In this document: positions 4,099 to 30,518 of the stretch, one piece after another | Numbering within the stretch: the first letter of the stretch is position 1 | How the letters are laid out: each line of letters starts with the position of its first letter | Assembly: GCF_964355755.1 (NCBI RefSeq) | Contig: NC_092675.1 | Span: 17,394,912 to 17,458,911 of the forward strand | Source of the DNA: Antedon mediterranea | Lineage: Eukaryota; Animalia; Echinodermata | Reading direction: 5' to 3' | DNA length: 64,000 bases | Notes under the pieces: model-generated | What the model was told of the DNA's origin: nothing | What the model saw: only the letters and a program-made list of their open reading frames with translations | Databases searched by the model: none | Position numbers and translations under genes: made by a program

Positions 4099-7000
4099 AT
4101 GTGGATGTTTGGTGAATTGTTGACATTGATTGTTTTTCTTCAACTGGGCTATGCTCAACTTGAACCATTAACTTTAAATGTACCGAAGAAAACATTCGTA
4201 GTTGAAGCTAATGATGAATCGTACGTAGAATATCTTATCGATGTAATAGATGAACTTTTATTATCAAACCCTAATGACGAGGGGAAGTATGTCTTGCAAT
4301 CGTTTTCAGAGTATGGTATGTACATGTGATAGTTATTTACTTCTGTATGTAATTACTACGGTAGGTTAAATTTTCTAACGTACACTTTTAATTGTTTAAC
4401 CATCAGACAATCCCAACCCACTCACTTCAAATAGTAAAATTGCAAACTATACTGTGGGCTGACATGACAAGTTTATATCCCAATAATTGTAGTTACAAAG
4501 ATAATATTTTTCTGTTTCAAAGGTTTATTTATTGTGTGTAGTTCCCAAATCTTCTTTTTGAAAGTAGGCCTAAATCATAGTGCATTCAGATAAGCAAATA
4601 AAAAAATAATTGCTACTGACTCATAAATATTACATTCACTTGAATAATATTATTTTTCTTTTCTTATTTGGGCAAGAATTGTGCATACAGGTAATATGAA
4701 AATAGTTTTTTTTTTATAGAAATGACTAGGCCTATATGATGTTATCTATGAGTAGAACATAAAATAATCTCGCTGCGATAACTAATTTTTCGGCACAGTT
4801 TGGTGCGTAATCGTGCCGTAAAGGTGAACATGAAATAGGCCTATGGCAAGCTATCAGTAGCAATAGATCATTAATAGTCCTGGGGAGAAGAATCTCACCT
4901 TAGCGGTGTCGTTTGATAAGAAATTTACCTGTAAAAGTTAATTTTACGTCGAAGAACCTTGACCCGATGTTGTCAAATTGATGGAAACTGAAAGGTAGTT
5001 TGGTTGTCACAGGCCTGTGTTCGACACGTGCGTGCTACACGTAGGCTTATGACGCAAGATTCAGAGTTACCGCTCATTTAACGTAGACATACTCGTTAAC
5101 AACCATTGGTATAGGCTTATTCTGCTGAGGAATGACCCATTGTTTATATAATTTAAATGTTTTTGTATTCCATAAATATGACAAAAGCTAATGAAAACAA
5201 TCTGAAATGTTTTGATAGCAAGTAATGAACACGTTGAGATAAAAATTAATCATTTAAATTTTGCGATTTTATGGGTGAGATCTCTGTTGGGGTTTTTCTC
5301 TCTAAAGACCGTAATTGAATTGTTAACAGATATGACCTTTTCCAGCAAACACTAATCCAGGACAGATTTGTCTAATAATGATAATTTTAATATCTATATT
5401 GGGGACGTATTATTGATATGTGTTCAATAAACAAGCTAATTTTACTAAGAATGCATTTATAAGGAAATCACAGGGTAAATTAAACATTTGAAGCTGAATT
5501 GAATTTCTGAAAGAAAAACAATAATAAACTATTTAAATTTTACGTGCTAAAAGTAATTTTTCCAAATTACATTTAATTGAGTAAACGTTATTATATGTTT
5601 GATGGGTGGGATATTTTCAGTTGACTAATCTCGACAAGTGGTATCAAGAGTGTTGTGGTTCGTGCTTTTTGTAATATAATTATATTGACAATTACAATGA
5701 ATGTACACAAATTTAGAAGACCGAATGAAATTGCATAATTATATACCGTTTGGATAGGTTGATTCTTAATATCTACACTTATGCTCAGAACACAAAACCG
5801 AACTGTAATCGAGTCACGATACAGAAGAAAGTGAAGTGAAGAACTTGTGCCAAATGCTGCAGCAGCAAATCGAATTATTGAGTGAATGTAGTATGGTGGT
5901 ACTACTGTATGATGATAACAACTTGGTATGAATGTTGAAAGCCATTTTCCAGCAAAGTTATTTCTACTTTATTACTCAGTTTATTAATTTCCATTTTATT
6001 TCACAAAACATTATTGCAAAGTTATATTTACAAAACACAACTATATTATTCTCTTTAAGTCATTAAATATATTGATTGTGAATCTAACATGAATAACGAT
6101 TAATTGTTAGGCTACTGGGTGGTATGATCTGTCTTGGTCACTACGAACATTAGTACTTCCATCAGGCTTCCCGCTGACGTTGTTGTTATTCTTCATATTC
6201 TTAGTGATCTAGCCTGTGGTAATTATTTTCTTTGAAAATGTTTTTGAGAGATGGTATGGAAGTACCCAGGCCCCCGTTTGTATTATTTAAGTTTATTTCT
6301 TATTTCAACATTGAATTCAGCTTCAATTTGTTCTAAATCGTTTTGTAAGTTCAGGTTACACGTGTTTAAATTTATCTTATATTAATCTAACATTTATTAT
6401 CAACTTAATTAAACTTTAGTTAGTGCTTTTAAAAGGCTGTAACAACGAACACACACGCGTACCTATGGGAATAAAGCATTTGTAACATGGTTTTGTCAAG
6501 ACCAATTAAATTCATTCCCAATTAAGTAAAATTACTTTGTTTGTGGTAATGAAAACCAGAAGGAGATTACAACATCAGCACCTGATAAGTCAGGGTATCG
6601 TTAACCGATAGCTTCCAATTTGAATTGGTGAAATTAACCTAGTAACTTTTGATTTATCCCGTGATTACTAAATTAAAATCTTTAATAATTTCGTCGGGTA
6701 CATGTGTACTTTATTACTTACTGCAGGTGCTCTATTGTTGAGTTTTAATCGTTGATTTTCTAAATCTGTCCATCCGTTTTTGTACAGTTGTGTAATGTTG
6801 TTGAAACTTCTTGTTGGTTTCTCCAATTTTTGTCGTCTATAATACACAATCCATTTTTAATATGTCATGAACTCGTCTTGCTTTTGTACACTGATATATT
6901 ATACTGAAAGTTTACAAGGTATTTTAAAGGTATGTCAACTTTGACCTTTAAATATTATTTCTAACATAGGAGATACCTTAGGGTAAGGAAAAAGGATCAC

Positions 7001-10000
7001 ATTCTTTGAAAATAATCGTGTAACTTAGAAACACAAGATCGAAGGTGAATACAAATAATTAGAACTAATATAGGCATATTCTGAATATTTAGAAATTAAT
7101 TATAAAAGCTAAACTTATGCAAAGAATAAAAATTGTTTTGTTGTTTTAAGAATTAACTTGATTTATAAAGTGCATCAAGTTCAGGTGATCAATTAACTTT
7201 AGGTTCGATTAGGAACGGGGTTCTAAAGGAACATCACGTCTATTGCTCCTAGCATACATTCCAAACCAATCAAATTATGGAAAAATGTATGGCTACAAAA
7301 TATATTTACTGTGTAATTGTTCTAATATCTGTCTAATGTCATGGGATTATGTCAAAAAACATTTAATTTCAACCCACTGAGTTTATTAATGAATTATTCC
7401 AATGATATCATATTTCTTTCAACTATTCTTAGACATGTTTGTTTTCACAACCTTAAGTCCATAAAAAACAATTTGGTATTAAAACAGTAAAATCATATTC
7501 TAAGGATAATATTACTTTAAAACAAGTTGCAATATGCTAATGAATATTCTTATATTTCAAATTAAATTACGGAAATGCTTTTATTCGCTACGATTTTGGT
7601 CAATTTAGCTCTATAGGTGTTATATTACGTTACATTACCATTAGTATGAAACACATTCTTTACATATTATGTACAAGTTAACATGGAAACATTGGATTAT
7701 GTATTGCAGAATAAAATCAAATCAGCAAATTAAATTGCAAACAAATTAACATGAGATAATTGAAGTGACAAATACGGCGTCGCAAACTGTGGAGATATTC
7801 TGCATTTCAGATTGGTTAGCATTTAATTTTGCTTAAACCAAACCAAAAGGTACAGCAAATTATAATAACTAAATAAGAAAATTTAATATAGATATTTAAA
7901 ATGTAAATATTAATTATAATAATTATATCGAATTATTTAATACTTTTTTCTCTTTTACATAAACTTGTAGCAAGCTTTATAGCCCTATATCAATTTAGCT
8001 ATAGGCCTATTTTTAGGCCTAATTATCTGGCCATTTGATACAATTTGATAATAAAACAATCAAGGTTTTAGGGCGTTAATATTACATTCGAAAGAATTGT
8101 TTAAACCCACAGCTGGAAAGATTACACGTGTTTGTAATCGCAATGCAATCCTAGTAAGTATCTTAAATACAGTTGAAATTGTTTAATTTTTAAAACTTTT
8201 TATTCCAAAATGTGTTTTTATACGAATAAGATATTTTTATAGAATGCACGATAATTATTTTAAATTTTGTATATATTGAAAAAGATAAAATACAGATATT
8301 TGCAACTAATAGGTAGGCCTATGTTCAGTCATTGGCATAATCTTTGAATTGGTAACATTCCTGGAATTTTCCTGAGATTTGACGTAATTAATATGCTTAT
8401 GATGTATGTCTTGCGAAGTTGTTGTTTGTTCATGTTAAGAAGAAAAATAACTGCATATTATAACTCCATGGGAACACTTAGGAACTATTTTTACTGTATT
8501 AACATAATTCAAATCTGTAACAGAATCCCATTAATTGTAATTATCTTACAAATGGTATTCGAAATGATAAAGTAATAAAATGGTGTTTTTGTATGTTGAT
8601 TATGTTAATTATGGTGTCATAAAATGTGCGTATAAACGTTTGAATGTAGTTTGAGTGTATCATTTTTTTTGTAGTCAGCATTAACCGGACGTGCTGTGAT
8701 TTTATCGAAATACCCAGTACCCCATTTACCTGGATCATTACCAAGTTGCGTTGGTGAAAACCAACAGCGGTAAAAGATGATTGACACTTTTGCAAAAGTT
8801 TTGCGTACAACTTTATGGCGCCGAAGCGAACTTTACCTTTGGTACCGTAGCTTGAAGGAGGAAGTAGTAGGCATGCGTATAAACTCAATATACAGAGTTT
8901 CGTTTCTGTACTGGTTTTGTCAATTTGATTGTCATCTTTCACCACCCTCCTGACACAAGCTCGCTAATATTTGTAAGGGAATTTGACGTTAGCTAGCATA
9001 TTTTTGCGTCAAATCATTAATAGTTCAGTGACATGATTTAATAAATTACATTTATAATGTTGATAACATCACATTTATTTGTTGTCTTTTACTTCATGTT
9101 TTTATAGGAAATGTGAAATAAATAAACATAATTCTCTAACCAAACTAAATTTCAATAGCATGCCGCAACTTATTAAACGTGAATTTGATTATCGGGAAAT
9201 CATTTTTCTATGTTATATGATTCAAGATAACATATCTTAGATTAGTCGATGCTGTTCTGAACAATGTTTGATACCATTCTGTTGTGATTCCTTGCAACAG
9301 GTTCCACGTGATTAATTAAAAAAACAAGACACAAAGACATGATTTAACATTATTTTAACACCATGACCTACTTCAGATGTATTATAGATAACATTATTGG
9401 ATTGGTGTAGGCCTTCTGGAGAGTAACATCTGAACACTGAGAAAACATAGGCTTGGCATGTGTCTCAAATAAAACATCCAGATCTATTCATAGTGCATAG
9501 CTGGGTTCATTTCCGAATATCGTATTCAACAGTTTTGTAATTTTTTGTAATGGGATTAATATATATAATAAGATATTTCCCCGACGGCAGTTCAGATAAT
9601 CTTTGACAGGGTTAAAATACGCCAACATACCGCTTCATCAAAATTTTATACATAAACAAAACTATAACAATATAGAAAATATCTGTTTAAACAACTGCTC
9701 ATTTTTTTCTATGTTAATTTCTTACTGTAATTACCATAATTTTAATTTTTGTTTACAGCAAACTGTATTAAACCTTTCCCAATAGTTATTTTAATATACG
9801 AAAATCGTGTAAATCACAAATTAACAGCTATTTTGATGAACTTCGAGTTTTACAACAAGCGTTCAAACGCGCCATTGATGGCAGAGAAGGCGGCTCATTC
9901 CAAATCTTTATATTATTAGGTACAAAGCGTATTGTACTTTTAATGACATTATTTCGTTCATATTTCTAGATGTTCCAATCCCGATTGAATCAAACAGCTT

Positions 10001-11425
10001 AATTGAAATTCAAGAATCGGTAAGATCTCTAGATGTTTACGACAATCAGAATTGCTCAACACGTGGCATCAAATCTCTGCCGCTGTACAGTGCCCTCAAC
10101 AGTTCTGCTTCAAATTCACTTGTGGTCGTTGTTACCGGAACAGGTGTTGAATCAGATGGAACTTTTATTCCTGAATTATTTGATATTATTCAGAAGAAAC
10201 AGCTTAGGGTAAGTTTAAAAATCTTAACTAATCAATCAATTGAAAGATAATCATACCCAGTCGGTATAAAGTTAACAAAATCAGTTTGCAAGTTGAACTG
10301 TTTTAATTGATATTCTAAAAAAGTTTTAACATTTTAGTAACTAAGCAAATGTTTCTTTCCTTTTGAACATATCTTACTTAAGTTTTAATTTGTAGGTTAT
10401 CTTTGTTGTATCCGATGAATGTTCTGATGGATACCGCAATGGACGTCAGTTAATAGACGAGGTCAAAGAAGTTAGTTCAGGGGTCATATTTCCATTGGAA
10501 ACTCAAAACATTAGCCAGGTTGGAAGCTTCACTTTGTATTTTGTACAACTATATTTTTTTTTTCTCTTTTGTGGCGTGAAAAACCACCTTTATTCTTTCA
10601 TATCATAATTAAATACATTACAAATAAATCAGTAATATCTGTCTTCATATGTTCTTTCTTTAATTATATTGTTTTCTCCTTTTTTCCCCTTAATTTCTTA
10701 CATTTTTCTTTGTATTATTCTGCTCAAAAACAACTATATTTGTTTTTTCAATAATGTAAAAATAAATATCTAAATACTAAATGCTGTTCAGTAAATTTGA
10801 GAATAGATTATTACGGATTATTCTTAAGAGTAAGTTTTTAACTAATATAGGATGTAAAATATCTGTATTTTTCATGTTAATATCGGAATATTATTTTCAA
10901 TAACAGATTATTCGATTCATTCAAATTTTTGATTACGGGGATGACGTCAGTCTTCTATCTCCTACGCTATCGACACCAGGAGTTAGTGCCTACCAATTAT
11001 ACGTTGATGAATCAATTGAACAACTAATAGTGATTTTATCAGGCCTTGAACCAATCATATCAATCTCAGACGTCGACGGTAAGTTTATAATATACATTAC
11101 AGTATAATTTATATACAAAATCACATTATTTTATTCCATATTATGTTAAGACAGTTTAATGTTTGACGTTGTGATTGAAAATAAAAGAGGAATGACACTT
11201 TATTGAGCAGTTATACAATTGAGTCTGAAGTTGTACGTTTACGTTTTGCTGTTTACTTTTAGGTTGTTTACTTTTTATGTTTTTTACTTTTGATGTTTTT
11301 TACTTTTGATTTTATTCTGCTTGTATTTTATATAATGTATTACCTTCTGTTTTGAAAGAATGTACCAATATTAACTCGTTTAAATTTAATTTTAAAAAAA
11401 ACATTTTATCGTAATTGTTTAATTG

Positions 11426-11458
<33 letters not shown>

Positions 11459-14400
11459 GACAATTATTTTTTTATATAATAGTTTTAAATTTAAATGTAT
11501 ATATTAGATTCGTATTAGTTAAGTATAGTTTTATATATTTTGTCATTTTTAAGAGGGCCCCTGAATATCAGCTGGCCTGCGGGTTCAGCTGGAAGGGTTA
11601 CCCTCTATAAATAAAGTTGAAATAAAAAAATAAAAAAAATTTGACGTTTTTAACTTATTAGCGTTTGCTTATTGCATCTCAATTGAAATCAAACAGCTTT
11701 GGTTTTACCTGTTTTTCGATGCATGTAAATAAATATATGTTTCTATGGGATGTAGCAAATCATTATGTTATTAATATATATTTTTAATACGATTCGTTAT
11801 ATTTTATAATTCAATAGGTAAGAAGCTTGAAGCGGAACAGGACTTTGAGTACATCGTTGCTTCCAACAAACTACAGATCATTGTTCTTGAGAACGTTTTT
11901 CCAACTGAATATACACTCAGTGTATTTAGCTCTACTGATAACTTGGTTCAAGTCATTGGATTTGCACCTAGCCCTATTGATATTAGGTTTATGTTTTACT
12001 ATGAGAAGACCATCAATATGACACAGGCATCGGAAAGGCCGTACACAACAGAAGGTAACTTTCTTGCACCAATTACAGGAAAGAAATACATTCTACAAAC
12101 AATTAATAATTGTAACAGTCAATATTTAGTTTATTGTTATACTAATTTTCCAATTAAAGTGAATTATTACGAAGGCGACTAAAAGTTTTATTCATATTTA
12201 TATTCATTAAATAATTTTAATGATTTTTCAACTGACATATATTACTCTTTATTAATTGTGTTTGAAACTATACATTAAACATGCACGTAGTGGTGCAATA
12301 TTTAGTATATCAACATCTCTCTAATGCTTGCATAATATTAATTTTAAGATGTGTTCATATAAAAAAAGATGAACCAACGTTGTATGTCTAAATTTCTATT
12401 TGTTTAAATAATCTCTCTCTTTATTTGTAGGTTCACAAAATGTCATTCTGATGCAAGTTGAAAACACTGAAACTAATGTATGGCACTCCCATGATATTAT
12501 TCAGAAGGTAGAATTTATTTCTTTGGTTGGTGAAGTTCTGCGAAATATTTACATGGACTCATCAAATTTTGTAAAAGAAGAAAACGCAGACCACGCTCAT
12601 TATGTTATGCAAATACGGCCACCAGATGATCATTTCTACATTACGGTACGAGGAGTTAATAAGAATCAACCGTTTCAGAGGTCATCTAAAGTGGCTTTCT
12701 CTCAATGGAGACCAGGTATGATTACATTTTGTATAATTATATCATCATCACAACAAATACTGGTGTAAAGTTAAAAGCACCAATGGCAGGCACAGGCCTA
12801 CACGGAAGATGGGTCTGATTAAGGGTACAGTCGGGCACCATCCAGGGCTTGACAGGGGCCAAACCTCTTCAAAATTGAGGCATCCTTAAAATAATGTCCT
12901 ATACCATGCGTACAATTATAGTAGCTTAAATAATAAGAGGAACAATCCACTACTAGTACTAGACAACAGTGTATATGAAAACATATTTCTCTTGAGTTGG
13001 TCTATAACATTCACTTTCAATCCTTATATATAGGCCTACTGTATACAGATTATGTTGTATATATAGTTGAATTGTTTTGACATGTTGACCTACGTCGACT
13101 TTTTTTTGTAATTGTTATTTTCTATATCATGTTTTTTTTTGTTTTTTTTTTGTATATTTCTCTTGGATGCACCTTCCATTTGGTCGAGTGCCACTGTTGT
13201 AAAAGTGTAATCTCCAAATAAATAATTATTATTATTACCAACAATTTAGTAACGTGAAATAACTGTCAATTTAATACATTATTGAAATGGTTCGTAAATT
13301 GTAATTTTAATTATATTTATTTGGCTCACAAGTTCCGAGCAGACCATCGAGTTTTATCGTATTTGAAGCTGAGGACTGTGATTACGAGGCAATTTGGTAC
13401 GAACCAGTACACACTTTTACCAAATCTTTGATTGCATATCAGTTTTCGTTTGGATTGGACACAGATACACCTATTGAGTTTCTACTACCATCAAATGTAA
13501 CGTCATATCGAGTTAACGAATTGGGTTGGTATTTTATTTATATCTAAGTAATTTATAAAATGTATTTCATATTAGTGATTTATGTTGAAATTAATATGTT
13601 GAGTTAATGTCAAGGCTGTTTTAATCACGGCGCAATCATTGCAATTATTTTATTTTGGTAAAGTATAAGTTTAATTAATTTTGTGAATAAATATTTAATT
13701 TCCATCAATGCTTCAGCGAAAGGTTTGACATACGTGTTTACCGTCGCCGCTGTCAACGAAGCTGGCGTAGGAGAATCACTTTCTGTCACCGTCATAACGC
13801 CTTCTGACAGTAAGTATATATTAACACGGTGTATTAACACACTATGTAATAATACAATACATAACTAATAAAATAATGTGCCATACAATATCTATTGTTT
13901 AAATGAACTATTTTTTAACGAAATTATGTTACAAACATTTGTTACAACTGTATATTGAAAAGAATAAATGTTGTTGTCATAATCAAAATTGAATATACTA
14001 ATATAATAATAGAGCGATTTCGATTTGCGACGAACGTACCTAGGATCTGCGCATGTTATGTCGTTGGTCGTCCTCAGGACCAACTCCACCGAAACCAATG
14101 TCACCACATTCCCACAGTAAATTAACATCACGTAATTAGTTCCTAAGCCCTAGATCATGGAAAATCCATCTTTATGTGACAAAAAATGTGATGTGCCCAT
14201 ATATGCCATATCTGCATGTATCACTACTACCATATTTGGCCACATCACACTTTTTTTTATCAAACTATTTTGATAGTGTAGACAGAGCTTTACACTTTTT
14301 TAAATATCATAAATTGTTCTTATTTTCAGGACCAATTGCACCACCAACAAACATCCATGCCATTCAGGCCACCGATTCGCTTATAGAGATCTCGTGGCAA

Positions 14401-17400: not shown

Positions 17401-20400
17401 TTTCTTGCATGCTTCTTCAAATTCCATCATAGTTTTTTTCTTTTAATATTTTAATCGGACCCCATGGTAACTAATCTTTTTTTAGGATTAATAAGGTTTG
17501 ATTTGAATCTATTAATCTTCATATGTTTCATGTGTGTGAAGTCGGATACTAATTTAATTATGAACTATGATTAGTTTAATCAATCTCATAAGAACCACTA
17601 TAGTTGTTGACAATATTTAGATTTTTAGACTTCTTGTACGTTACGTCTGTTGCGTTGCTTACTATAGGTCCAACAGGAATCGTGACTGACCTACAAGCAC
17701 TAGATGTTTCCAGTAACGAAGTAACAATCAAGTGGTTTCCTCCATTGCTTGATCTCAGTGATGGACCTCTCTTAAAATACATTGTTTACATACACACATT
17801 AAGTCTGCCGTCAGAAACATACAAGTTTGACACCAACGTTACTGAGCTCGTTTATAAGAACTTAGAGCCAAATACTGAGTATGTAATTAGAGTAAGAGCG
17901 GTAACATCAAAGGGGATTGGGCCGTACAGTTCGGTATCTATCAAGACTATAGAAGGTGGGTATGATTTTAACTCATCACTGAGCTCTTAATTTTTATTTC
18001 CCCCAAATTCTGCCAAAGGACTGGAACAACCCCAACACTACTGTAGAAGAAATAGACCTAAACATGAGGTTGTTAAAATACGAATGGAGCTAAATTACAC
18101 ATTTAGAACAAAAACTGGATAATATTGAGTATATTGCTTTGGTTGAAAATTTATAGTTTTTATTTTCCTGAAACGTCAAATTAAAATGTATTCTATAATT
18201 TATTCCAGAAGATACTCCTGTCGATGATACCACTGATAAAGACGACGATCAAACTACAGGAAAAAACATTCAAAATATTGTTACAAAAACTCCTAAGCAA
18301 CCAGGTATGAATGGAGAGGTAGAAAAAACAACATTGAAGCCGGAGATAACAACCGCAGAATCTAAAGTGCATGGAAGTGATAATGCTGATAAAGTGAGTG
18401 TAACTATTGATGAAACACCTGCTACATACTCTACTGAAAAACACGAAAACAACAACGGTTCAGATACGGAAGAAATGATACCAGAACCCGAGGAACATGC
18501 TAATGATGGGGAAGATCATTATGTTGTACCAACACCAGAAGATTTCCAAGAACCTGAACCAGACCGGACATCTACTTTACCAACAATCACCAAATTAGAA
18601 GATGAGACAAATAAACAAGATAATATTGAAAGTGTCAATTTTAAATCAGACTCAACAGAGATGAACGTCGAAGAAAAATTGAAAGCAAACACAAATACTA
18701 AAGACAGTTCAGAGGCGGTAAGCATTGAAGAAAAAACAGATAAAACAGATGGAATTGATACTTATAATGAAGAAAACCCTGAATTAAAGACTGAGACACC
18801 ATTTGATATTGAGCCAATTGAAGACGTCGGTGAAAATCAAGAAACTGTTAAGAGTACGACTGTTATACCTAATTACGACGGTAACGAAAATGAAGAAAAT
18901 GACGATGGTGCCATTGCCATTGTAACTGAAAGTATTGTTGTTAATGTCGATACCACAATGAAGAACGTTGAATTGGGTGAGGACATTGAAACAGCTACTG
19001 ATATCTCTGTAATGGAAGGTGATTCACAATCTCTCTCCGTTGATACAAACGGCGATAAGTTAACCGTTGATGAAACAGAAAATGTTATTATGATAACAGA
19101 TACATATATAGTAGATGCTGATGACGTCAACAACGAAGACATTGTGAATCCAATGGATGGAGGAGAGTAAGAGGAAATTTATCATTATTTTTAGTGTAAA
19201 CGTTTTTCATAGTCGACATTATATCAATATCATCAATAAATCATTGTCGATATATTTTTTTTACAGAGTTGCAGTTAATGAGGTACCACATTTGACCGTT
19301 GCAGCCCCATTACAACACCGAATAATTGATTATAATGGAAAGGCAACATTGAGATGTTTCGTCATAGGCTTTCCACTTCCTTCGTATGAATGGTACCACG
19401 AAGGGAAGAGGATACCAGTAGTAAGAGGTCGCATTAAGGATAGAACATTTGGATGGGGATCAAGGATTATTATTAAGAATATTACAGAGTCGGATAAAGG
19501 GCGTTATACATGCGTTGCCAAGAATGTAGCTGCAGAGAGAAGTCTAGAGGGCACTGTGTCTGTCAGAGGTGAAACATTTATTTAGAGTATATGAATTATA
19601 GATGAGGGCGTATCAATTTGATCTCTGGTGCGCGTGCGTACAACTGAGGACCAGTTGTGTTCCAACCGTACCACGCCGAGAATGTTAAAGGGTCGTTATC
19701 CGATCGAGTTAAAGAACAATACCATGAAAGCCCAAGTGGTCTAATGGTTAGGGCAACTGCATATCAAGCAGACGGTCCGAGTTCGAGTCTCGGTTGGGGC
19801 GACTTTTTCTCATTCTCCCAGATTTCCTCATCTTTATCGTTTCAAAAATTAATTAAATAATTTTCAGTGTATCACCGGGCGGTTTGGAATTTATTTCTAT
19901 GCCTGTTGTGTTTATATATATATAAAAGTATCTCTCGAGATCCCGCTTAGTGAATAAATATACTGAATTATAGATGAGGGCGTATCAATTTGATCTCTGG
20001 TGCGCGTGCGTACAACAGAGGACTAGTTGTGTTCCAACCGTACCACGCCGAGAATGTTAAAGGGTCGTTATCCGATCGAGTTAAAGAACAATACCATGAA
20101 AGCCCCAGTGGTCTAATGGTTAGGGCAACTGCATATCAAGCAGACGGTCCGAGTTCGAGTCTCGGTTGGGGCGACTTTTTCTCATTCTCACAGATTTCCT
20201 CATCTTTATCGTTTCAAAAATTAATTAAACAATTTTCAGTGTATCACCGGGCGGTTTGGAATTTATTTCTATGCCTGTTGTGTTTATATATATATATATA
20301 TATATATAAATCATACTGTAAATTATAGAAACAGTGCTCATATTCGGAACATGATCTCATAATCGCGTCGAGCATAGCTCATTGGCGAAAGTTCCGTATT

Positions 20401-20901
20401 TTTTAGTTGTATGAAAAAATGTCTCTGGCTGGATTCGAACCTGCAACCTCTCGCTTACAGGGCGAGTATCATACCACTAGACCACAGAGCCATGTATGGT
20501 ATTATCACAGATTTTCACCCACCAGATACATTCTCTCATACAACAAACGCCCTCACAATCAGTGGAGGCTTGACAAGTCAGAATAAATTCCAACTTTAAT
20601 TCGCAACGGTTTTTTAAATAATATTGTGTATATGTAAATCAATGATGTTGCGTAGCACTGTGTAAATTATATATAAATCATACTGTAAATTATAGAAACA
20701 GTGCTCATATTCGGAACATGATCTCATAATCGCGTCGAGCATAGCTCATTGGCGAAAGTTCCGTATTTTTTAGTTGTATGAAAAAATGTCTCTGGCTGGA
20801 TTCGAACCTGCAACCTCTCGCTTACAGGGCGAGTATCATACCACTAGACCACAGAGCCATGTATGGTATTATCACAGATTTTCACCCACAAAATGACAAT
20901 G

Positions 20902-20943
<42 letters not shown>

Positions 20944-23900
20944 CATTGTCATTTTTTTCAGTAATTTGCCTTTGGATTTATATATATATATATAAATTCC
21001 AAACCGCCCGGTGATACACTGAAAATTATTTAATTAATTTTTGAAACGATAAAGATGAGGAAATCTGTGAAAATGAGAAAAAGTCGCCCCAACCGAGACT
21101 GTGTACCTAGTGGAATACTGTTTCACGGCTTAAATACCAAACTTCTACTTAGCTAAATTGACAATTCTTTTATTGTTTTTTTTTTAAAATATATTTTCAG
21201 GAGTTGCAAAAATTGATGATATTCAGGTTATTATTAAGTCATCAACAGAGGCACTTGTAGTTTGGACAAAACCAAATTACATTGCATCTGGCGCAACATA
21301 CGTTGTCCGGTTTTATAATGAAGTTAATCGCGGATTAAAATATCATTTCTCCACAACCAGAACAGAGACTTACTACAGGCAACTATTGCCTAATTCAGCA
21401 TACACGTTCAGAGTGAAGATGCAAAGAGACGATAGATCGAGCGTGTTTAGCAAACCAATCATGGTGAAAACACCGCCGTTGGGTAAGTTTGATACCGTAA
21501 AGTAAATCATGAAATATCGTTTAACAAATGTAAACAATATTGTTTACTATTTATTTACTCTTTGGTGATCTTACAGAACCCACTACAATATCACCTAAGG
21601 ATTCTACGTCCTCGCCCAGTATTGATTCCACAACTTTATTTGTCAATGACAAAATAGTAGTTGGTGTTACCAATGCAGATACCGGAGAGGGGATTCAATT
21701 TACTACTGGAAGTCTGGAAGAATTTCAATTCAGTACGGCCACCAAAGATGAAAAAAGTCAGTCATTGCTAGTAACTACTGCTCCCGAATTCGTTCATGAA
21801 GACCTAGAACCATTGACAACTGCAGTTCCTGAACCAAAGGCAACTGCAGCTCCTGAACCAATGGTAACTGCAGCTCCAGAACCAATGGTAACTGATGATC
21901 CGGAACCAATGACAGCTGTATTTCCTGAACCAATGGCAACTGCAACTCATGGACAAGTGGTAACGGATGACCATGAACCAATGGCAACAGCAGCCCCTGA
22001 ACCAATGGCAACTAAAGTTCCTGACACAGTGGTAACTGATGATAACGAACCAATGGTAACTGCAGCTCGTGAACCAATATCAACTTCAGCTCCTAAACCA
22101 ATATCAACTGCAGTCCCAGAACCAGAAATGGAACTAATGGTAACGGATGAAAAATCCATTGCAAACGCATCTCCAGAACTAGTTATTGACGATACTGATT
22201 ACACTACCACTAATATCCCTAAAGGTACAGAAGAACCAGAAAAGGCAAATGCAATGGAGTCAACAACATCATCAATCATGATAACTGATACGAAAAACAG
22301 TCCACTGAATACTAATCCTCCAGAAGACACAACATCTACGGATCCGGTTGCAAGTCAAGTTGACGAAAATGAGGAATCTCAAACATCTGGGTACTAATTA
22401 TTTTGCTGATTTATTTAAAAGACTTTAATTATAATACCAATGTTTAGGTATAGAAAATATTCTTTATTTTACTATAAAATTATAAGAGTGGTGTTCTAAC
22501 TTGGGCAAAGTTTTTCTGTTAAATTATATAATATATATGTTTTATAATTACTATACATTCCAATCATGCCATCAGTTTCATTTTATCTAAGTATAATCGA
22601 AAACAAAAACATTTCTCATAGAATATTACACTGTACCCATATTACTATCAATATGTATACTATTTATTATAGACCGATCGCTAACGACGGCACGTATCTG
22701 CGGTTAATAAGACCTTTGCCAGACGTCATTGCATTTGTCGATGATCGCTTGAATCTACGATGCACCGTAGATGCTAACCCATCAGCTACATTACTGTGGC
22801 ACAAAGATGGAAATCCGTTGAACATAGGAGGTGACAAGATTAAGGAAAGAAAGTATTTAAAAGGGTCAATACTCACGTTTAAGGAAATTAAAATGTCGGA
22901 TGCAGGCAGATACACTTGCATTGCTCTCAACCATGGCAATGTTGTAGAAACATCTGGAAATATTACTGTTATTCCAAGTAAGTGCATTGTATTATGTAAT
23001 TATAATGTAACCTAACGTCTGGTGTTTTAGATCATTATATTGTGTTAGGAAGTGAGACGACGAGCTTCAAAGTTATTCGCGGAAAGGACAACAATTAGAA
23101 GTACCGTATATTGATAACTTATTATGTGGGTTGTCTGTACATTTTTCTGGTGTAATATATTAGCACATGTAATAATTGCTGCAAAAAAAAGAAAAAAGAA
23201 ATAGTTATCAATTCAAAACATTTCCATATTCTAAAACTTAGACATATTTTTTTGACGTTTTTAGAGGGTAGAATAACACAGAAGCCAGTCGTTGAAAACA
23301 GTCACACAGTAATGAAGCGATCAGTCAGGCCTGGAAGTAATAAGGATGTCGATCCATCATCATCGTACGCATCGTCATACACTACTCATCTGCCGTCATT
23401 AGTGGAGGAAGTGTTCATTACACCTGATGCAGAAACTCCAAAGGTTACAAGAGTATCGCAACATGATCCACAGATGCAGAAGCCTGATGGGAGTGTTGTG
23501 GTACGAGTTACTGGAATTGAACCAGAAGAGGTATTTCAAGACGCGAAAACTGACAGACTTGGGAATCTCAATGCTCGACCATCTCAAACATGGGATTCTA
23601 GTCGTAGGTGAGTCAACTTGCTTTCTTACCTCCGTTATGTAGTCGATTGTGTGTGTTTGTTTCGTTTATATTTGTTAGTTAGCAGAATTACTCAAAAAGG
23701 TATTGCTCGATTTTCATAAGATTTTAAAGGATGGTTTCATAGCTGTATGGGAACACATCATTCATTTTTCACATGCCTATGTGGAGGTTTGCCATTATCT
23801 GTACATTTCGATGGTAGAATAACTATTTTAATTATTATAGAATAGAAATAATAAAGTATACACATTTTTGATGACTTTGTTTTTGTATACAGTGGCGAGC

Positions 23901-26900
23901 CGTATGTAGAAATTAAAAAATACATGGAGGAACAGAGTGTTGAGGTTGGCGACAGGGTAGTGTTCCTTTGCCGAATCATTGGCGAACCTAAACCTAGGTT
24001 TTTGTGGTATAAAGATGGGGCACCATTAGTCTTTGATGATAGTCGAATGAAGGAGAGAGTTTTGGACACCGGGTCACGTTTTACCATCAAACAAGCGCTT
24101 TTGCGTGATGCAGGAATCTACACTTGTTATGGTCTTAACGATTATCAAACGGTGTCCATGCGAGCCACTCTAGAAGTCTTCAATCCATGTGAGTTAATAA
24201 ACTGTTGATAGTTTGTTCTTTTTGTTACTTGTATGTAGTTTATTACTAAATTCCTTGTAGAGGTGTATTATACGTTCTGTATCAAAGATACACTAGCAAG
24301 GGTTGCCCGACGACGATTTATAAGCAATTGATTTTTTTTTCAATTCAATTCAATTTATTTTCCACATACTATACAACTACTACAACCTAGTACATGGAGG
24401 ATGCATATTTTAAGATCTGTGCAGAACACATAGATCTTTAAGCTAATAAGCAACCTTAGACAATAATAATAATTACAATAAAAATAAAAGCATTGAATAA
24501 ATAAGTAAGTAAGTAAATAAATAAATAAATAAATAAGTAAGGCAGTATACAAAAAAAGAAATTATTCCATGTTTCATATAATTATATTGTATGATATATA
24601 ATAAATAATAAATAAGTAGAGTGGTATTTACTCACCATATATTTTCGTTTTTAGACGTAAATCCATACCAGCAGCCATCTACTACACCCACAAGAACAAA
24701 ACCGAATACTAAACCAAGAACAAAGCCACCGGCAAAAACAACACTTCCAATCACCTACAAACCAACCGACCCATTTACAACCCAAGTAACAAACTCGTAA
24801 GTTAATGACGTAATCAATCAAATGATAACATCTGTAATAAAATCAATGGTCATGTATAACAATGGCGATAACATGGACACACATAAAACCATGATTAATG
24901 ATGTTAACAATAATAATCGTCACATTTTTTTTATTAGTGAATAGACACCATCATCTTTGTAGGAAGTAATGATTATATATTAGATATTAGATTATGCTAT
25001 ATTACCTTCAAACGAGTAATTTCTCAATAATATTATATCTAATGTCTAAATTGTTTGTAAAAATTTAAATTACAGTTACACTAAGAAACATGATTGTATT
25101 GGAGAAATCTCAAAACTTTGCATGTCAAACGAGTTAGTTGGAAAGAAGGTTGATATAGATGATCGTATCTCGCTTCGGTGTCAAATATATGGAGATCCTC
25201 AACCTGAATATCGATGGTATAAAAACGGAATAAGAATTTACCCAACAAAACTTGGATTGATAAGAGAAAAGGCATTTCCTTGGGGTTCTCGCTTAGCTTT
25301 TAGAGGCGTGAGAGAGGCTGATACTGGTGAATATCGATGTCAGGCGATCAATGCAGCTGGTATTAAAGAAACAAAGGCTTGGCTGCTTGTCGGACCTTGT
25401 GAGTATTTCTTTTTCTGTTTATGTTTGTTATTAAAAGAGTACAACATTTACAACTTTCTATCCTGTTTGAATCTTTATTGGATCCGGTATAGGCCAACTC
25501 AGACAGCATCGTACGTCGAGGCCCGACCAATCGTTTTGACTCGTCCGCCGGTACTGTCTGAGATGATTCCGACGAGAGTCGAGAGTCGAGTCGTCTTGCG
25601 ATAGCGTCGAGCGTAGTTTTTAGACTCGTCGGGCCTCGTCGTACGACACTGTCTCTGAGTTGGCCTTAAGTTGTTTTGTTATTCAGACCGATTGTAAAGA
25701 CTAAATAATATATTTTTTCTATTTTAGATGCAACAATTCCTCCACAAATAGAAACAGAAGCACCAACCACAACTGTTGAAGCATACAGACCTACGACGAC
25801 CCAAACAAAACCCAAGCCTCCAAAGAAGACACCAAGGCCAACAGCCCCACGGCCACCAAAAAAGACAACACAACGCGTTGATCCTACAGATGTCTTCTTG
25901 CCAACAAGTACATCCAGACCAAGCGTCCAGTAAGCAGAATTGTTTGACGTTTTTTTCACAATATATATATAGCGTCGACGTTTACAAACTATGTCCCTTG
26001 GACTTTCTCTGCTCTTTTCATACATAGTAATTTGTATAGACAATTAGATTAAAATTATAATTTTATAGTACCGTAAAATATATACTGCTTCTGAAGATTT
26101 TGATCAGCTACTTAAGTCATTCTATATTTCCTATTTAGAAAATGCATTTCTGGTGACAACGGTGAATTATGTTATGCTAGCATGCCACATCAAGTCGGAG
26201 TAACTGGTGGATCCGTCGTTTTCCAATGCAGAATGAGCGGTACACCAGAACCTCAGTTTATCTGGTTCAAGAATGGAGTTCTTATTTTCATGGACGAGGA
26301 AGCTGGAGAAGATGATATGCAACGCATTCGTATTAAACAGATGTCGTGGGGGTCTCGTCTTGTTATCAAAGATATTGTACACGAAGATGCCGGTACATAC
26401 CTCTGCGTTGGCGCAGTTGTAGACATATCAGAAATTGTACAAGCTGAATTAAGTGTGGTAGAAGGTTCTCAATCCAGTAAGTCTTCCACATAGCATAGCA
26501 TAGACAACTGATACACTGTAGGCCTACATAATAACCTGTTTTTCTATTCTTAGAACCACCGCCAAAGAAAAAGCCTAACAAGAATAAGCCACCGAAAACT
26601 CCAAATACACCAAAGCCAAAGCCTCAACGGCCTAGAACACCAACAACGGGAGAAGACACTACTCCTCCCGTTTACAGACCTAGACCTGAAACTGGAAACA
26701 ATGGCGGGCAACCGGAAGGAAGGTATATCAATTCATTTCAACGTGCAGTCTCTTTGTCTTTCTCCGTTTACGTTAGTCTAACTATTTACTTCCACCAAAT
26801 AATAGCATCATAACTTGCCTAAAAATTAACGAAACAACTGTTTTCACAGCCCGGATGGTGGAAGATGTGTGGTATACACTGGCTCTGTGTGTCGTCGTTA

Positions 26901-29900
26901 CCTAAAATCTCAGATGGTTTATGTTGACGGCGGTTCAGACCTGTATTCAATTGATTACCAGCTTCAGGCTACTTTACAAACACTTTCAGCAACTGATTTA
27001 CAATGCATGAGCTACCTCGAGCCATTCCTCTGTTTCAAAGCCTTTCCCCTCTGCGACGATAGCGGTAAAAGTAAAAGCATATGTCAGGAGGATTGCTCTG
27101 TACTCACAAGAAGCTATTGTCGTGACCTAACTGATCTGAAAGTCGCATATCCTGGACAATATCTGTGGATGCCTGCATACGATGACTGCAGTACTTTACC
27201 ATCAGTGAACGTAGACAGCCAATGCATAACAGTGGGACTAACGAATTGTACGTATATATAACATAATTGTTCCTTCTATAACTGAAAATTCTCAATGTAT
27301 TAATGTTGTTTAACCTTAGTTTTATTGATGTAATGTTACTGAATTTTAATATTTGTATTGATTGTTTGTGGGGTTTAATTGATATACAATATGTCAATCA
27401 ATTGTTCATTAAATATTTATCTAGCACTATAAATACTCGACAATGCAGTATTAATTCTACATAAGAAAATTCAGTAGTCATTCTGTAGTTCTTATTTTTT
27501 TAAATAAACCAACCCATTACACTAAATATTTTAAGATAAAAAACAAAAACGCTTAACATAATTATTTTTATGTTATATAGTATATCCACATACATTTAGC
27601 CTACTTCTCGTTAATCAGGCATTATTCGGCCTAAACTGTAAACGAATAATGACAGCTTAATGGAGTAATTAATATGTTCAACATCCACATAAATAAATCA
27701 ACTTATAATCAATAACAATGTTCATTTCTTTTAGCCAACACCAATCGGTCTCCAACTGCGGGGTAAGCTTTCCATTTATTCTAATTTTGATTGAATAATC
27801 AGTTTTTATACACCTAAACTAAACTACTCTAAATTCCTGTTTATTTCATCGAACGATTTTGGGTCACATGGCGTGCCATAGTACGCACTATTTAATGGTC
27901 GTTAAATAGTAGTTTCTGAATACTTACTGAATATGAATATAGGAAATTGAATATTATTTGTTCATTTTATCAACATTCTTTGCAGTGCTTTTGTCATTAA
28001 TCTGACATAAAGAGCTATTTAACTGGAACTTGATTAAATAATAGAACTCTTTACTAATATTAATAGGAAATGGCTTATATAACAAAGAACCAACATAGTA
28101 TTTTATTTCAATGAATAAATGATTGCCTGTACTAGGCCTATAGTTCGGCAGATGAAACTGTATATGTGTTCATTTTATATTTAGGTCTAAACCTGCCGGC
28201 AAATGCAGACCTTATAATTCTGACGGGATTTGCAGCGAATATGTTGGAAACAGGAACACGTTCATCAAATCCGGATTAACGTTAGCTAAAATCGAAACTA
28301 ATGTTATGTCTATATTCACGGCAGTCCTTACCCTAGGCTCAGTGAGCAGACAGTGTTCCAACTACCTCCTTCCATATATCTGTCTGAGGGCTCTTCCACC
28401 CTGCAACCGCAACGACAGGCCATTGGAGGTATGCCGCGAGGATTGTGAGGTCCTCTCGAATAATATTTGCTACGAAGAATTCAGAGCTACCCTGGCTACG
28501 GATGAACTAGATAATAGTGTATTCAAGCTAAATGACTGTCTGTCTCTGCCGTCTCAATCTGGCAAATACAGCTGCACCACTCTTAGTATATCAAGCGAAT
28601 TTAGAGGTAAGCGTCATCACTTCCTAATACTGTGAAACTTATGTACAATAGATTATATTTAACTTAAGCAGGTGAAAACCAATGTTGTATATCGTCATCA
28701 TCGTCTAATAGGTATTTACAACAAAAGTATGTTCTATTTTTGTAGCAACCGAAACTGATGTTGTTTTTCCTACAAGGTAATGCACACTTTATTATTTTCG
28801 TACCCATAATAATGCAATATAAATTTATTTGTGTATTTCTTTTTTAAAAAAACACCCAACACTGCATGAATTTAGTCGCACATTTTCGTTAAAAGTGTAA
28901 ATTTTATCAATGTTATTTTGTTATTATGTTTTTTTACCATGTATATTGTATCAGTATGTCCCTTTGGCCAAATTATATGCATAATAATCAAATATCACTT
29001 TATTTATAATTAAAGGCCTGCCTCCAATGATAAGAAAAGTATTCCTACAGGTTTCATTATGTTTATTTTGGTTTATAATGTCAATAATTAGTTGAAACGT
29101 ACAAAACATAGACAACGTGTCAATGATAATGCTCACTTATAAATTTGGACAATTTTGGATAGTCCACAGCCTACAAGAAATTGTGAGGCCTACAAAGGAA
29201 CAGTGTGTTCTAAGTACCTGTCTGGACGCAAAATCTACCTTAACAGCGGACAAAAACAGTCGGAAATTGAAAATGAGATTATTAAAATCAAGGAATTGCT
29301 AGACACTGAAATGGACTCGAATTGTGGTGGTTACCTCTTCAAGGAGATATGCCTTACAATGTTGCCAGTTTGCAATAGCCGGGCAAAGAAACGCGAGATT
29401 TGCCGAGAGGAATGCTCACAACTCCATAACGAATATTGTTATAATGATTATCAAACATTACAAGTATTGTTACGTGGCCGTGACGATGTCTTGACTGACT
29501 GTTCAACTTTGCCCTGGACTTCAGATATACGGGGCCCGACCTGTATTGAGCTCGGTGTTTCGTCATTACCCGAGGGTGAGTCTTCACCCCAGAAAAACAT
29601 GTACTATATATTATTATATATATTAAATACAAAGGCTGTTTGTTAATTATTTTACATATCTGTACTACTTACTTTTAATGTTACTTACTTTAATACTTTT
29701 ATTTTGTATGTTGACTGCATGTTCACTAATTTAGTAGAATGAAAAAGGCTACGTATAGTGCGCTTAACATTGGTAGATGAAATGCATGTAATAGTATATA
29801 TCCTTTAATATTTTTCCCTTTTAATTACGGTTTTTGAATTTAATTAGCTTATTATCATAATGTATCAGTTTTAATCTGTTTTATATTATGGTAATATTAG

Positions 29901-30518
29901 TTTTTATGTAGGCATGTATGTAAACGCTAACCAATTTTAAAGATTTTATTATATTTTTATATATAGGATTACATTTGATATAGGCCTAGAAGATTATCCT
30001 ACTATTATTTCCATATACCCTATCTTATTACCGTGCCGTTTTCATGCTAAAGTTAGTGCATATAAGTATTCATAATTATACTGCTATAAAGCGAAGATAT
30101 ACTACAGATTAGCACCTGCATCATCATTGTTTAATCCATTTTATCAGGGAAGAGTGAATTTACAATTGTAATTTCACTCTTCCCTGATGGCACTACCGAT
30201 ACGAAAGAAAATCAACAATAACGATGTATTGGTTTAACATTTTCAGTGGCTCCGCAAGTAGAAGTAGAGCTTGAAATGGATTCAAGTGCAAGACAAACGT
30301 CAACAGTTACTCTAAGATGTCGTGTGACTGGATCCCCACCTCCGACAATCGAATGGTCAAAAGACGGCGAGATACTACAGAGTACTAATAATATTTCATT
30401 AGATAGGAATAAAGTTCGCATTCAAGTTACGAGTGAACGAGAAGAAGGGACCTACACATGTACAGCGAAAAATTCAGCCGGAATAGACAAACAGAATATG
30501 CTCATTAATTTAGTATAG
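4099..30518 (+). CDS. Large secreted mosaic protein (~2,981 aa, 30 exons): signal peptide - hemicentin-type VWA module - FN3x2 - [spacer-Ig-FN3]x2 - mucin-Ig - [linker-Ig]x3 - Ror-type Frizzled CRD x3 - Ig; no TM or kinase
   Basis: GT-AG exons read manually, all phase-compatible: 4099-4315, 9970-10208, 10396-10518, 10907-11078, 11818-12054, 12431-12715, 13333-13524, 13717-13809, 14330-14620, 14840-15287, 16923-17245, 17668-17955, 18209-19166, 19267-19568, 21201-21482, 21577-22390, 22673-22977, 23265-23607, 23893-24188, 24655-24796, 25076-25398, 25728-25929, 26139-26476, 26554-26722, 26850-27247, 27735-27762, 28185-28606, 28746-28776, 29163-29575, 30247-30518. Summed length is 8946 nt (divisible by 3) and ends at TAG. 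N-terminus MWMFGELLTLIVFLQLGYA|Q looks like a signal peptide. Further micro-exons (e.g. ~14078-14117) cannot be excluded. Confidence 0.85.
6107..8874 (-). CDS. Candidate small antisense gene nested in intron 1 of the mosaic gene (3 exons, ~84 aa; no recognisable domain; could be non-coding)
   Basis: Exon-like blocks 8874-8837 (ATG...AG|gtaaag), 6836-6722 (ttatag|...|gtaagt) and 6208-6107 (ctag|...TAA) join in frame. AATAAA on the - strand at ~6000-5995. Confidence 0.3.
11500..11640 (+). mobile_element. 3' tail of a 5'-truncated non-LTR retrotransposon (stem-loop + AATAAA + A-rich tail)
   Basis: gaggg...cagctg...cagctg...ccctc hairpin followed by aataaagttgaaataaaaaaataaaaaaaa. Confidence 0.5.
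15853..16680 (+). mobile_element. Decayed LINE (CR1/L2/Jockey-group) reverse transcriptase fragment in an intron
   Basis: SGVPKGSVLGPLLF..FIND and LLFADDVKLY RT motifs, followed by frameshifted C-terminal remnants (KDLGI, RMVGFIWR). Confidence 0.85.
19730..19801 (+). pseudogene. tRNA-like element (Asp-like, ATC anticodon, non-canonical A32), family A copy 1
   Basis: A box TGGTCTAATGG, T arm CCGAG-TTCGAGT-CTCGG, acceptor stem with one mismatch, TTTTT just downstream. Confidence 0.6.
20102..20173 (+). pseudogene. tRNA-like element (Asp-like, ATC anticodon), family A copy 2
   Basis: Acceptor GCCCCAG/TTGGGGC+G, anticodon arm CTGC-ATATCAA-GCAG, perfect T stem, oligo-T terminator. Confidence 0.65.
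20420..20491 (-). pseudogene. tRNA-like element (tRNA-Pro-like body, loop CCTGTAA = TGT anticodon), family B copy 1
   Basis: Reverse complement GGCTCTGTGGTCTAGTGGTATGATACTCGCCCTGTAAGCGAGAGGTTGCAGGTTCGAATCCAGCCAGAGACA followed by TTTTTT. Mismatches in acceptor and T stems; C33. Confidence 0.6.
20787..20858 (-). pseudogene. tRNA-like element, family B copy 2
   Basis: Identical to 20420-20491. Confidence 0.6.
21820..22140 (+). repeat. Coding 24-bp minisatellite (EPMVTAAP-like octapeptide, ~13 degenerate copies) forming a mucin-like stalk
   Basis: Repeated gaaccaatggtaactgcagctcct within exon 21577-22390. Confidence 0.85.
25491..25666. mobile_element. MITE with ~38-bp terminal inverted repeats (PIF/Harbinger-like)
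   Basis: Left aggccaactcagacagcatcgtacgtcgaggcccgac; right gtcgggcctcgtcgtacgacactgtctctgagttggcct. Flanked by ata/tta-like triplets; CpG-rich island within an AT-rich intron. Confidence 0.8.
26850..29575 (+). other. Three tandem Frizzled-like cysteine-rich domains of the Ror/MuSK subtype (exons 26850-27247, 28185-28606, 29163-29575)
   Basis: Each exon has 10 Cys with the pattern CxxYxGxxC...CxxY(L)xxxxCxxxxPxC...(I/V)C(R/Q)E(D/E)CxxLxxxxC...DCxxLP...C. CRD3 QSEIENEI resembles ROR1 QGEIENQI as I recall it. Confidence 0.9.

Follow-up and report, generated by a model that had tools for sequence, protein, structure and literature searches.

A gene on the plus strand at positions 4099-30518 of a 64,000-nucleotide (nt) stretch of the feather star Antedon mediterranea (contig NC_092675.1; this entire stretch is the window referred to below) encodes a protein, predicted to be secreted, in which a hemicentin-type N-terminal head is joined to fibronectin type III (FN3) and immunoglobulin (Ig) domains and to three cysteine-rich domains (CRDs) of the type that is present in the receptor kinases Ror and MuSK. 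Comparison of the predicted proteins indicates that this architecture is conserved in a second feather star, Anneissia japonica, and apparently restricted to crinoids. In our best reading, the protein might act as a matrix-held, three-site, lipid-independent Ror decoy that was built by exon shuffling, a function to which, in our analysis, we assign a likelihood approaching an even one.

Domain architecture of the crinoid protein

The gene model consists of 30 exons with GT-AG boundaries at all 29 introns; the spliced frame of 8,946 nt encodes 2,981 amino acids and contains a single stop codon (30516-30518), and the first ATG is preceded by an in-frame stop. The coordinates, exon count and phase consistency given in the initial annotation hold, and the model is letter for letter the RefSeq protein XP_071952164.1 ('uncharacterized protein', Antedon mediterranea). 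RefSeq isoform X2 is one residue (glutamate) shorter than isoform X1, which is accounted for by a tandem acceptor, 18209/18212, at exon 13 (window positions 18207-18212).

From the N-terminus, the protein comprises a predicted signal peptide, a VWA_4-like domain, GBD_Hemicentin, a third head domain that has no name (the head as a whole reaching about residue 425), FN3 a, FN3 b, a linker, Ig1, FN3 c, a linker, Ig2, FN3 d, a linker, Ig3 to Ig6, each followed by a linker, CRD1 to CRD3 and Ig7, which is directly followed by the stop codon. Pfam recognizes seven I-set Ig domains, three Fz domains and fn3 in exons 9, 12 and 15, with a weak FN3-type match over exons 7-8. The previously proposed hemicentin-type head is borne out: when the head is searched in isolation, GBD_Hemicentin scores 28.4 bits, above the cut-off of 27 bits, and VWA_4 scores 25.6 bits in Antedon, just under this cut-off, and 37.5 bits in Anneissia, above it. 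In worm hemicentin, the VWA domain has a targeting role. A search of the head against PDB sequences gave no match, and an AlphaFold model of the head built from 2 sequences (pLDDT 31) was not used. Atlas searches, taken as leads only, matched the head to clusters of bacterial VWA (0.90) and hemicentin-like VWA (0.85), and the first match of the tail was a cluster of ROR2 fragments (0.90).

Low-complexity linkers account for 1,023 of the 2,981 residues (34%): three acidic ones come first (net charge -22, -63 and -39), and the last three, rich in Pro, Lys and Thr, are basic (+6, +6 and +9); a Cornifin match on exon 16 was rejected as low-complexity. With this share of linker the protein is not rigid, and the extended rod that was originally envisaged is not upheld.

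Secretion is predicted from a signal peptide at residues 1-19, called by eye and from hydropathy. No kringle, transmembrane (TM) segment or kinase was found in the protein by Pfam, hydropathy, tblastn of the window or RNA read through the stop codon, in line with the initial description: the top 19-residue hydropathy is 1.48, whereas the TM helices of two Ror proteins reach 3.01 and 2.82, the tail lacks hydrophobic character, and a Ror kringle-TM-kinase query had no tblastn match within the window at E <= 1. The Pfam scan of the protein also contained no netrin (NTR) domain, and the 18 Pfam families with matches in the full-length protein did not include TSP1, G2F, EGF or the fibulin C-terminal module.

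These data bear on the possibility that the gene encodes the ectodomain of a membrane receptor, with TM and kinase exons lying further downstream or being alternatively spliced. Modules of the Ror type, both Ig and CRD, otherwise occur in receptor kinases, and the RefSeq name of the head model in Anneissia is that of a receptor phosphatase; however, the RNA continues unspliced through the stop codon to 30905, which speaks against the onward splicing to TM or kinase exons that would have contradicted the first reading, the proteins of both species end at the same residue, there is no kringle-TM-kinase match in the window, and about 0.7 kb separate the end of the RNA from that of a convergent ankyrin gene. 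We regard this possibility as largely refuted and hardly credible.

All three CRDs are of the Ror/MuSK type

The three CRDs are of the Ror/MuSK type and not of the Frizzled type, in agreement with the initial annotation. Ror/MuSK CRDs are defined by a residue inserted before Cys8 and by a long helix 5 with a loop (Shi et al., bioRxiv 2021.04.29.442059; here and below, published work is cited from the passages of each source that were available). All three crinoid CRDs show C7-x7-C8 spacing and a long C8-C9 segment (20-22 residues), compared to x6 in the Frizzled-type rows, and all retain 10 of the 10 cysteines. The significant matches of CRD1 to CRD3 among PDB sequences were to ROR2 and Nrk only. 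A model of CRD1 (57 sequences, pLDDT 88) contains the helix break (helices 79-89 and 91-99) and, among the 159 chains compared, is closest in fold to ROR2 (Z 17.7, root-mean-square deviation 2.0, 129 aligned), with lower scores for MuSK (Z 16.1), Nrk (15.6), the best Frizzled (11.2) and sFRP3 (9.9). Basic clamp residues have no clear alignment in the crinoid CRDs.

A 29-row tree with two Fz-type rows as the outgroup places the CRDs of the crinoids with those of Ror/MuSK (99/97). The Ror side of this tree is unresolved and a single clade of crinoid CRDs is neither rejected nor shown (p-AU 0.50); a 66-row tree, built in quick mode, included 66 of the 132 CRD stretches, after duplicates and incomplete or short unlabelled rows were dropped. 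The CRDs are only 26-32% identical to each other and 71-81% identical between Antedon and Anneissia, suggestive of old copies under constraint.

The notion that Ror proteins carry a single CRD does not always hold, given that Ror-like kinases of a sea cucumber and of cnidarians carry two: the sea-cucumber protein (P0003/P0155) has the arrangement Ig-CRD-Ig-CRD-kringle, and two other kinases (P0004 and P0005, from a sea anemone and a further record) have the arrangement CRD-Ig-CRD, without a kringle. A receptor tyrosine kinase with two CRDs is also listed for sea urchin (PMC5778778, supplement 1).

Ig domains and a proposed origin by exon shuffling

The Ig domains were scored against a Ror-rich set of 197 stored proteins. 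The best single Ror Ig scores were 52-59 bits for Ig1, Ig2, Ig4 and Ig5, 44 for Ig3, 38 for Ig6 and 26 (25.7) for Ig7, and a GSR[LIF] motif is present in four of the domains Ig1-6. By these scores, the earlier description of the Ig domains as Ror-like applies to Ig1-6, which appear to resemble Ror Ig domains (38-59 bits), but not to Ig7, a generic I-set domain.

All nine exons that encode Ig1-6 and the CRDs are of phase 2-to-1 and each follows a linker exon of phase 1-to-2; FN3 exons are of phase 1-to-1. This pattern is consistent with a cassette of linker plus domain having been copied several times from the ectodomain of a Ror-like receptor, and we infer that the gene arose from such an ectodomain by exon shuffling.

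Distribution among animals

A profile of the three CRDs was compared with 1.84 billion representative sequences, yielding 649 matches at E <= 0.001, of which the best 150 were examined; Pfam was run on 53 of these 150 relatives, and most of the 53 are Ror/MuSK-like kinases or fragments. Among the best 150 of the 649, six have at least three matched stretches, and three full Ror-type CRDs were found only in the Antedon protein and in Anneissia XP_033111178.1. Of the other four, one is a short kringle protein and three, from a sea star and two shrimps, are arrays of the Frizzled type (with the spacing measured in two of these). Given that the match at rank 150 scores 61 bits, compared to 126-135 bits for two-CRD kinases, an echinoderm three-CRD orthologue should be among the best 150 unless it is very diverged. 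The head search matched only XP_033111179.1 of Anneissia (68%; 1 of 7,996 candidates per search), hemicentin itself being outside the searched lengths. A word-based search with CRD2 among longer proteins found none in 329 candidates, which is weak evidence.

The Anneissia orthologue is annotated as two adjacent models, a head (XP_033111179.1) and a tail (XP_033111178.1), with consecutive accessions and a scaffold of the same length; the folded domains are 58-86% identical between the two species. RefSeq names these halves after a LAR-type receptor phosphatase and UNC-89, respectively. Both names are misleading and are corrected by the architecture: neither TM and phosphatase domains nor intracellular kinase domains were found in the Anneissia halves, and Pfam of the two records (P0179, P0002) shows extracellular modules only.

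No description of this architecture was found in the literature searched, as the initial annotation had supposed; subscription journals and supplements were outside this search, so that the protein may be mentioned in a table of a genome or proteome study. In a skate, Rhinoraja longicauda, a 513-residue model (P0079, XP_078252911.1) combines two Ror-like Ig domains and acidic repeats with a CRD similar to that of ROR2 and lacks a TM segment, kringle, kinase and clear signal peptide; either the model is faulty or a kinase-less derivative of Ror arose independently.

Transcript evidence for a single gene

Five sequencing runs, none annotated as RNA, cover the stretch, and their contigs were compared with window positions 11700-31600. 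Run X1 was treated as RNA and run X2 as DNA because contigs of X1 skip GT-AG introns that are retained in X2. Fifteen RNA contig joints were inspected (225 further joints were not among them): six are GT-AG exon joints, all of which agree with the model, and the other nine lie within repeats. A 4,819-nt RNA contig (record 2) extends from 21647 to 30905, that is, the 4,813 nt of the model plus a 6-nt allelic insertion, and continues unspliced through the last coding exon beyond the stop. A 4,738-nt contig (record 1) was placed on exons 10 and 13, which it spaces by 611 nt, the length of exons 11 and 12 combined; upstream of these, 2,065 nt are left, compared to 1,849 nt of coding sequence in exons 1-9, and in the bin of exon 6 the RNA depth was 12.3 expected and 12.3 seen. 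Record 1 is computed to end at 21648 and record 2 starts at 21647, which places the meeting point inside exon 16 with a computed overlap of 2 nt. Exons 1-5 have no direct RNA and rest on this arithmetic, the RefSeq model and the Anneissia orthologue. Thus, the single transcript that had been assumed is supported at all six exon joints and by the 4,819-nt contig, although no single RNA contig covers the whole gene.

Alternatively, there could be two products, one consisting of the head part (signal peptide-VWA-FN3-FN3-Ig-FN3) and the other of the Ig/CRD part, expressed from two genes or as dominant short isoforms. This would be compatible with the two Anneissia models, with the two Antedon RNA contigs, which differ in depth (28.6 and 103) and overlap by 2 nt as opposed to 30 nt for directly adjacent contigs, and with exons 1-5 being without direct RNA. 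However, contig depth is unusable for ranking parts of the gene, an allelic indel could account for the short overlap, and the Anneissia tail model begins within a linker, without a signal peptide, at a 26-residue stretch that occurs twice. Furthermore, record 1 of Antedon runs across the point after exon 12 at which the Anneissia models are split, and the Anneissia tail model in turn spans exon 16, the open 814-nt exon that holds the break between the Antedon contigs. Because the two breaks fall at different places and each is spanned in the other species, one gene encoding both the head and the CRD part is the best reading and a highly probable one, with possible additional short isoforms, whereas two separate products are improbable.

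Comparison with known protein families

The crinoid protein fails membership in the hemicentins, the Ror/MuSK kinases and the sFRPs alike. It shares with the Ror/MuSK kinases (ROR2, Nrk, MuSK and the sea-cucumber protein XP_071851449.1) the CRD subtype (spacing, helix break and fold), appears to resemble them in Ig1-6, and differs in the absence of the kringle, TM segment and kinase, in having three tandem CRDs, and in the added VWA head, FN3 domains and long linkers. With hemicentin (HMCN/fibulin-6), it has in common VWA_4 and GBD_Hemicentin right after the signal peptide, giant size, Ig domains and the lack of a TM segment; however, hemicentins are defined by more than 40 tandem Ig domains, G2F, EGF repeats and a fibulin C-terminal module (PMC10381214), whereas the crinoid protein has seven Ig domains split by linkers and a degenerate metal motif, and lacks TSP1, G2F, EGF and the fibulin C module. 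It differs from the sFRP family in that its CRDs are Ror-type rather than Frizzled-type and in having no NTR domain.

Closer in kind is sea-urchin sFRP-1, a secreted, echinoderm-specific domain fusion with four CRDs and an Ig domain that antagonizes Wnt signalling (PMC5778778). The crinoid protein, with its predicted signal peptide, several CRDs, Ig domains and no TM segment, appears to match this kind; the CRDs of sFRP-1, however, cluster with Frizzled/sFRP, and a single Ig and neither VWA nor FN3 are described for it in the available passages. For sea urchin, the same source gives a count of 15 novel CRD proteins, and it describes CRDs as mobile units; as available, its supplement 1 list has no entry labelled VWA/FN3 or kinase-less Ror-type. 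Thus, secreted multi-CRD and Ig Wnt antagonists are already known in echinoderms, and it is the combination of Ror-type CRDs with a hemicentin-type head that is unusual. The multi-Fz proteins of a sea star (XP_033633819.1) and a shrimp (XP_047484369.1) are likewise large and kinase-less with many CRDs, and the sea-star one also has Ig domains, but the domains measured show the Frizzled-type C7-x6-C8 spacing, and VWA and FN3 are absent. The closest precedent for the mode of action is variant 3 of collagen XVIII, a matrix protein with an embedded, cryptic CRD able to bind Wnt; there, a single Frizzled-type CRD is embedded in a collagen, and inhibition is brought about only by the released fragment (PMC2270346).

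A possible matrix-held Ror decoy

For the protein to act as a decoy, the hemicentin-type head would likely retain it in the extracellular matrix, with the basic linkers beside the CRDs adding to this retention, and the long acidic, mucin-like linkers would form a flexible tether rather than a rod. The three CRDs would mimic a Ror receptor, probably binding Wnt weakly and independently of its lipid; the ligand could be a Wnt, probably of the Wnt5 class, or a Wnt-Frizzled complex, and the avidity of three CRDs together with the neighbouring basic linkers may offset a low single-site affinity. As in collagen XVIII, the CRD tip may have to be cut free for activity.

Published observations on related proteins are compatible with such a role. 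The ectodomains of ROR2 and dRor pull down Wnt, and for ROR2 the pull-down of WNT5A is independent of acylation (bioRxiv 2021.04.29.442059). In C. elegans, the ectodomain of CAM-1/Ror suffices to inhibit EGL-20/Wnt and helps localize EGL-20 (PMC3539944).

Several observations weigh against the decoy. Identity of the crinoid CRDs to ROR2 is no more than 27-29%, and their branches in the 29-row tree are long; the Ig domains were assigned to Ror by means of the Ror-rich local set, and PDB searches with them returned lists dominated by multi-Ig proteins and were not decisive. The signal peptide is no more than moderately hydrophobic (1.48). Where the metal site motif of VWA domains, DxSxS, is expected, the head has E-A-N-D-E. 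In a screen of hemicentin fragments, only those containing G2F bound the matrix proteins tested, and the isolated mouse VWA fragment bound none of them (bioRxiv 2021.11.24.469833). In ROR2, helix 5 of the CRD blocks the palmitoleate groove and WNT5A is bound more weakly than by Frizzled CRDs, the MuSK CRD likewise lacks a lipid groove, and the kringle, absent from the crinoid protein, packs against the ROR2 CRD (Griffiths et al., PMC11219042). Finally, the isolated ectodomains of Nrk and ROR1 showed no significant pull-down of Wnt (bioRxiv 2021.04.29.442059). Given the blocked groove and the negative pull-downs of Nrk and ROR1, any trap would be of low affinity, lipid-independent and driven by avidity, and the 'Wnt trap' proposed in the initial annotation is weakened by the Ror-type CRDs. 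A low-affinity Ror-CRD sink is possible; anchoring in the matrix by the head is less sure than this, because the VWA metal motif is degenerate and only G2F-containing hemicentin fragments bound in the screen.

The same features could be read as those of a structural matrix or adhesion linker, whose modules bind matrix proteins, glycans or cell-surface proteins, with the acidic mucin-like linkers serving as hydrated spacers and the CRDs no longer binding Wnt. The large share of low-complexity linker (34% of the chain), the 11 FN3/Ig modules, the hemicentin-type head, the distance of the groove-less CRDs from Ror in sequence, and the many CRD proteins without a proven Wnt role (PMC6747125) all fit this explanation, whereas the retention of all cysteines in all three CRDs, their 71-81% identity across species, and the absence of the hemicentin modules for track assembly (EGF-fibulin C) and nidogen binding (G2F) do not. 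We rank it close behind the decoy, though well short of an even likelihood. Considerably less probable, in our view, is a positive co-factor that stores Wnt or presents it to Frizzled. Such a role would parallel that of the ROR2 CRD in promoting Frizzled-dependent WNT5A signalling, but the available literature passages hold no evidence of a CRD working unattached to the membrane, and the secreted multi-CRD precedents considered here are antagonists.

If the protein is indeed a decoy, its history might have been that crinoids copied Ror-like Ig and CRD exons, tripled the CRD, lost the kringle, membrane anchor and kinase, and added a hemicentin head, giving rise to a matrix-tethered, lipid-independent sink for Wnt5-class ligands that shapes gradients in arms and regenerating tissue; this full scenario is rather unlikely. 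A class of Wnt modulators selective for the Ror branch and not for Frizzled ligands would then exist. The gene also documents what appears to be the reuse of a receptor ectodomain in a matrix protein within one echinoderm class. Whether Ror-type CRDs alone bind Wnt is unsettled, with no lipid groove in the structures and yet Ror ectodomains acting in vivo, and a conserved, kinase-less three-CRD protein offers a natural test of this binding as well as a ready three-site reagent. Should the CRDs not bind Wnt, the protein would add to the mosaic matrix proteins that are specific to single lineages, and its interest would be modest.

Gene features and genomic surroundings

Table 1 Exons and encoded domains of the crinoid gene (window positions).
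Feature	Position	Strand	Basis
Exon 1: start codon, predicted signal peptide (residues 1-19), first VWA part	4099-4315	+	same N-terminus in RefSeq model and Anneissia orthologue
Exons 2-3: remaining hemicentin-type VWA, degenerate metal motif	9970-10208, 10396-10518	+	Pfam VWA_4 E=1e-5, 25.6 bits; 63% identical in Anneissia
Exons 4-6: hemicentin galactose-binding-like domain and third conserved head domain without Pfam name	10907-11078, 11818-12054, 12431-12715	+	GBD_Hemicentin 28.4 bits; 74% and 69% identical in Anneissia
Exons 7-8: FN3 a, split over two exons	13333-13524, 13717-13809	+	weak FN3-type match; 78% identical in Anneissia
Exon 9: FN3 b	14330-14620	+	Pfam fn3; 66% identical in Anneissia
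Exon 10: acidic Ser/Thr linker	14840-15287	+	RNA contig spacing
Exon 11: Ig1	16923-17245	+	Pfam; RNA contig spacing
Exon 12: FN3 c	17668-17955	+	Pfam fn3; RNA contig spacing
Exon 13: acidic linker, net charge -63	18209-19166	+	charge; RNA contig record 1
Exon 14: Ig2	19267-19568	+	Pfam
Exon 15: FN3 d	21201-21482	+	Pfam fn3
Exon 16: mucin-like Thr/Pro/Glu linker, 24-nt tandem repeat; RNA contigs meet here by arithmetic	21577-22390	+	
Exons 17-24: Ig3-Ig6, each followed by a linker	22673-26722	+	Pfam; six RNA joints match model
Ig3; Ig4; Ig5; Ig6	22673-22977; 23893-24188; 25076-25398; 26139-26476	+	Pfam
Exon 25: CRD1, Ror/MuSK type	26850-27247	+	Pfam Fz E=1.5e-11; PDB matches ROR2, Nrk only
Exon 26: 28-nt linker	27735-27762	+	
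Exon 27: CRD2, Ror/MuSK type	28185-28606	+	Pfam Fz; ROR2 E=5.2e-17; C7-x7-C8 spacing
Exon 28: 31-nt linker	28746-28776	+	
Exon 29: CRD3, Ror/MuSK type	29163-29575	+	Pfam Fz; ROR2 E=2.2e-16, Nrk E=1.6e-10
Exon 30, coding part: Ig7 (generic I-set) and stop codon	30247-30518	+	Pfam I-set; same C-terminus in Anneissia
3' untranslated region, at least 387 nt, unspliced from last coding exon	30519-30905	+	RNA contig piece 30246-30905

Three introns of the gene harbour repeats. A short element resembling a miniature inverted-repeat transposable element, with inverted joints, lies in intron 8 (about 14170-14292; contig depth 60,000-90,000 in its bin), and a broken fragment similar to a reverse transcriptase or long interspersed nuclear element, as judged from its translation, lies in intron 10 (about 15790-16550). 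Intron 14 contains a very high-copy repeat (19588-20996; summed contig depth up to 46,000, 372-nt tandem) with four copies of tRNA-Asp(ATC)-like and tRNA-Thr(TGT)-like sequences; one more copy is located at 53913-53984, and the repeat is likely a tRNA-derived mobile element. Convergent with the gene, on the minus strand, a single long open reading frame of 846 codons (31601-34141) encodes ankyrin repeats and a long low-complexity tail. Further downstream, at about 50100-63100 on the minus strand, the translation reveals exons of what we take to be a class III PI3-kinase (Vps34-like) gene.

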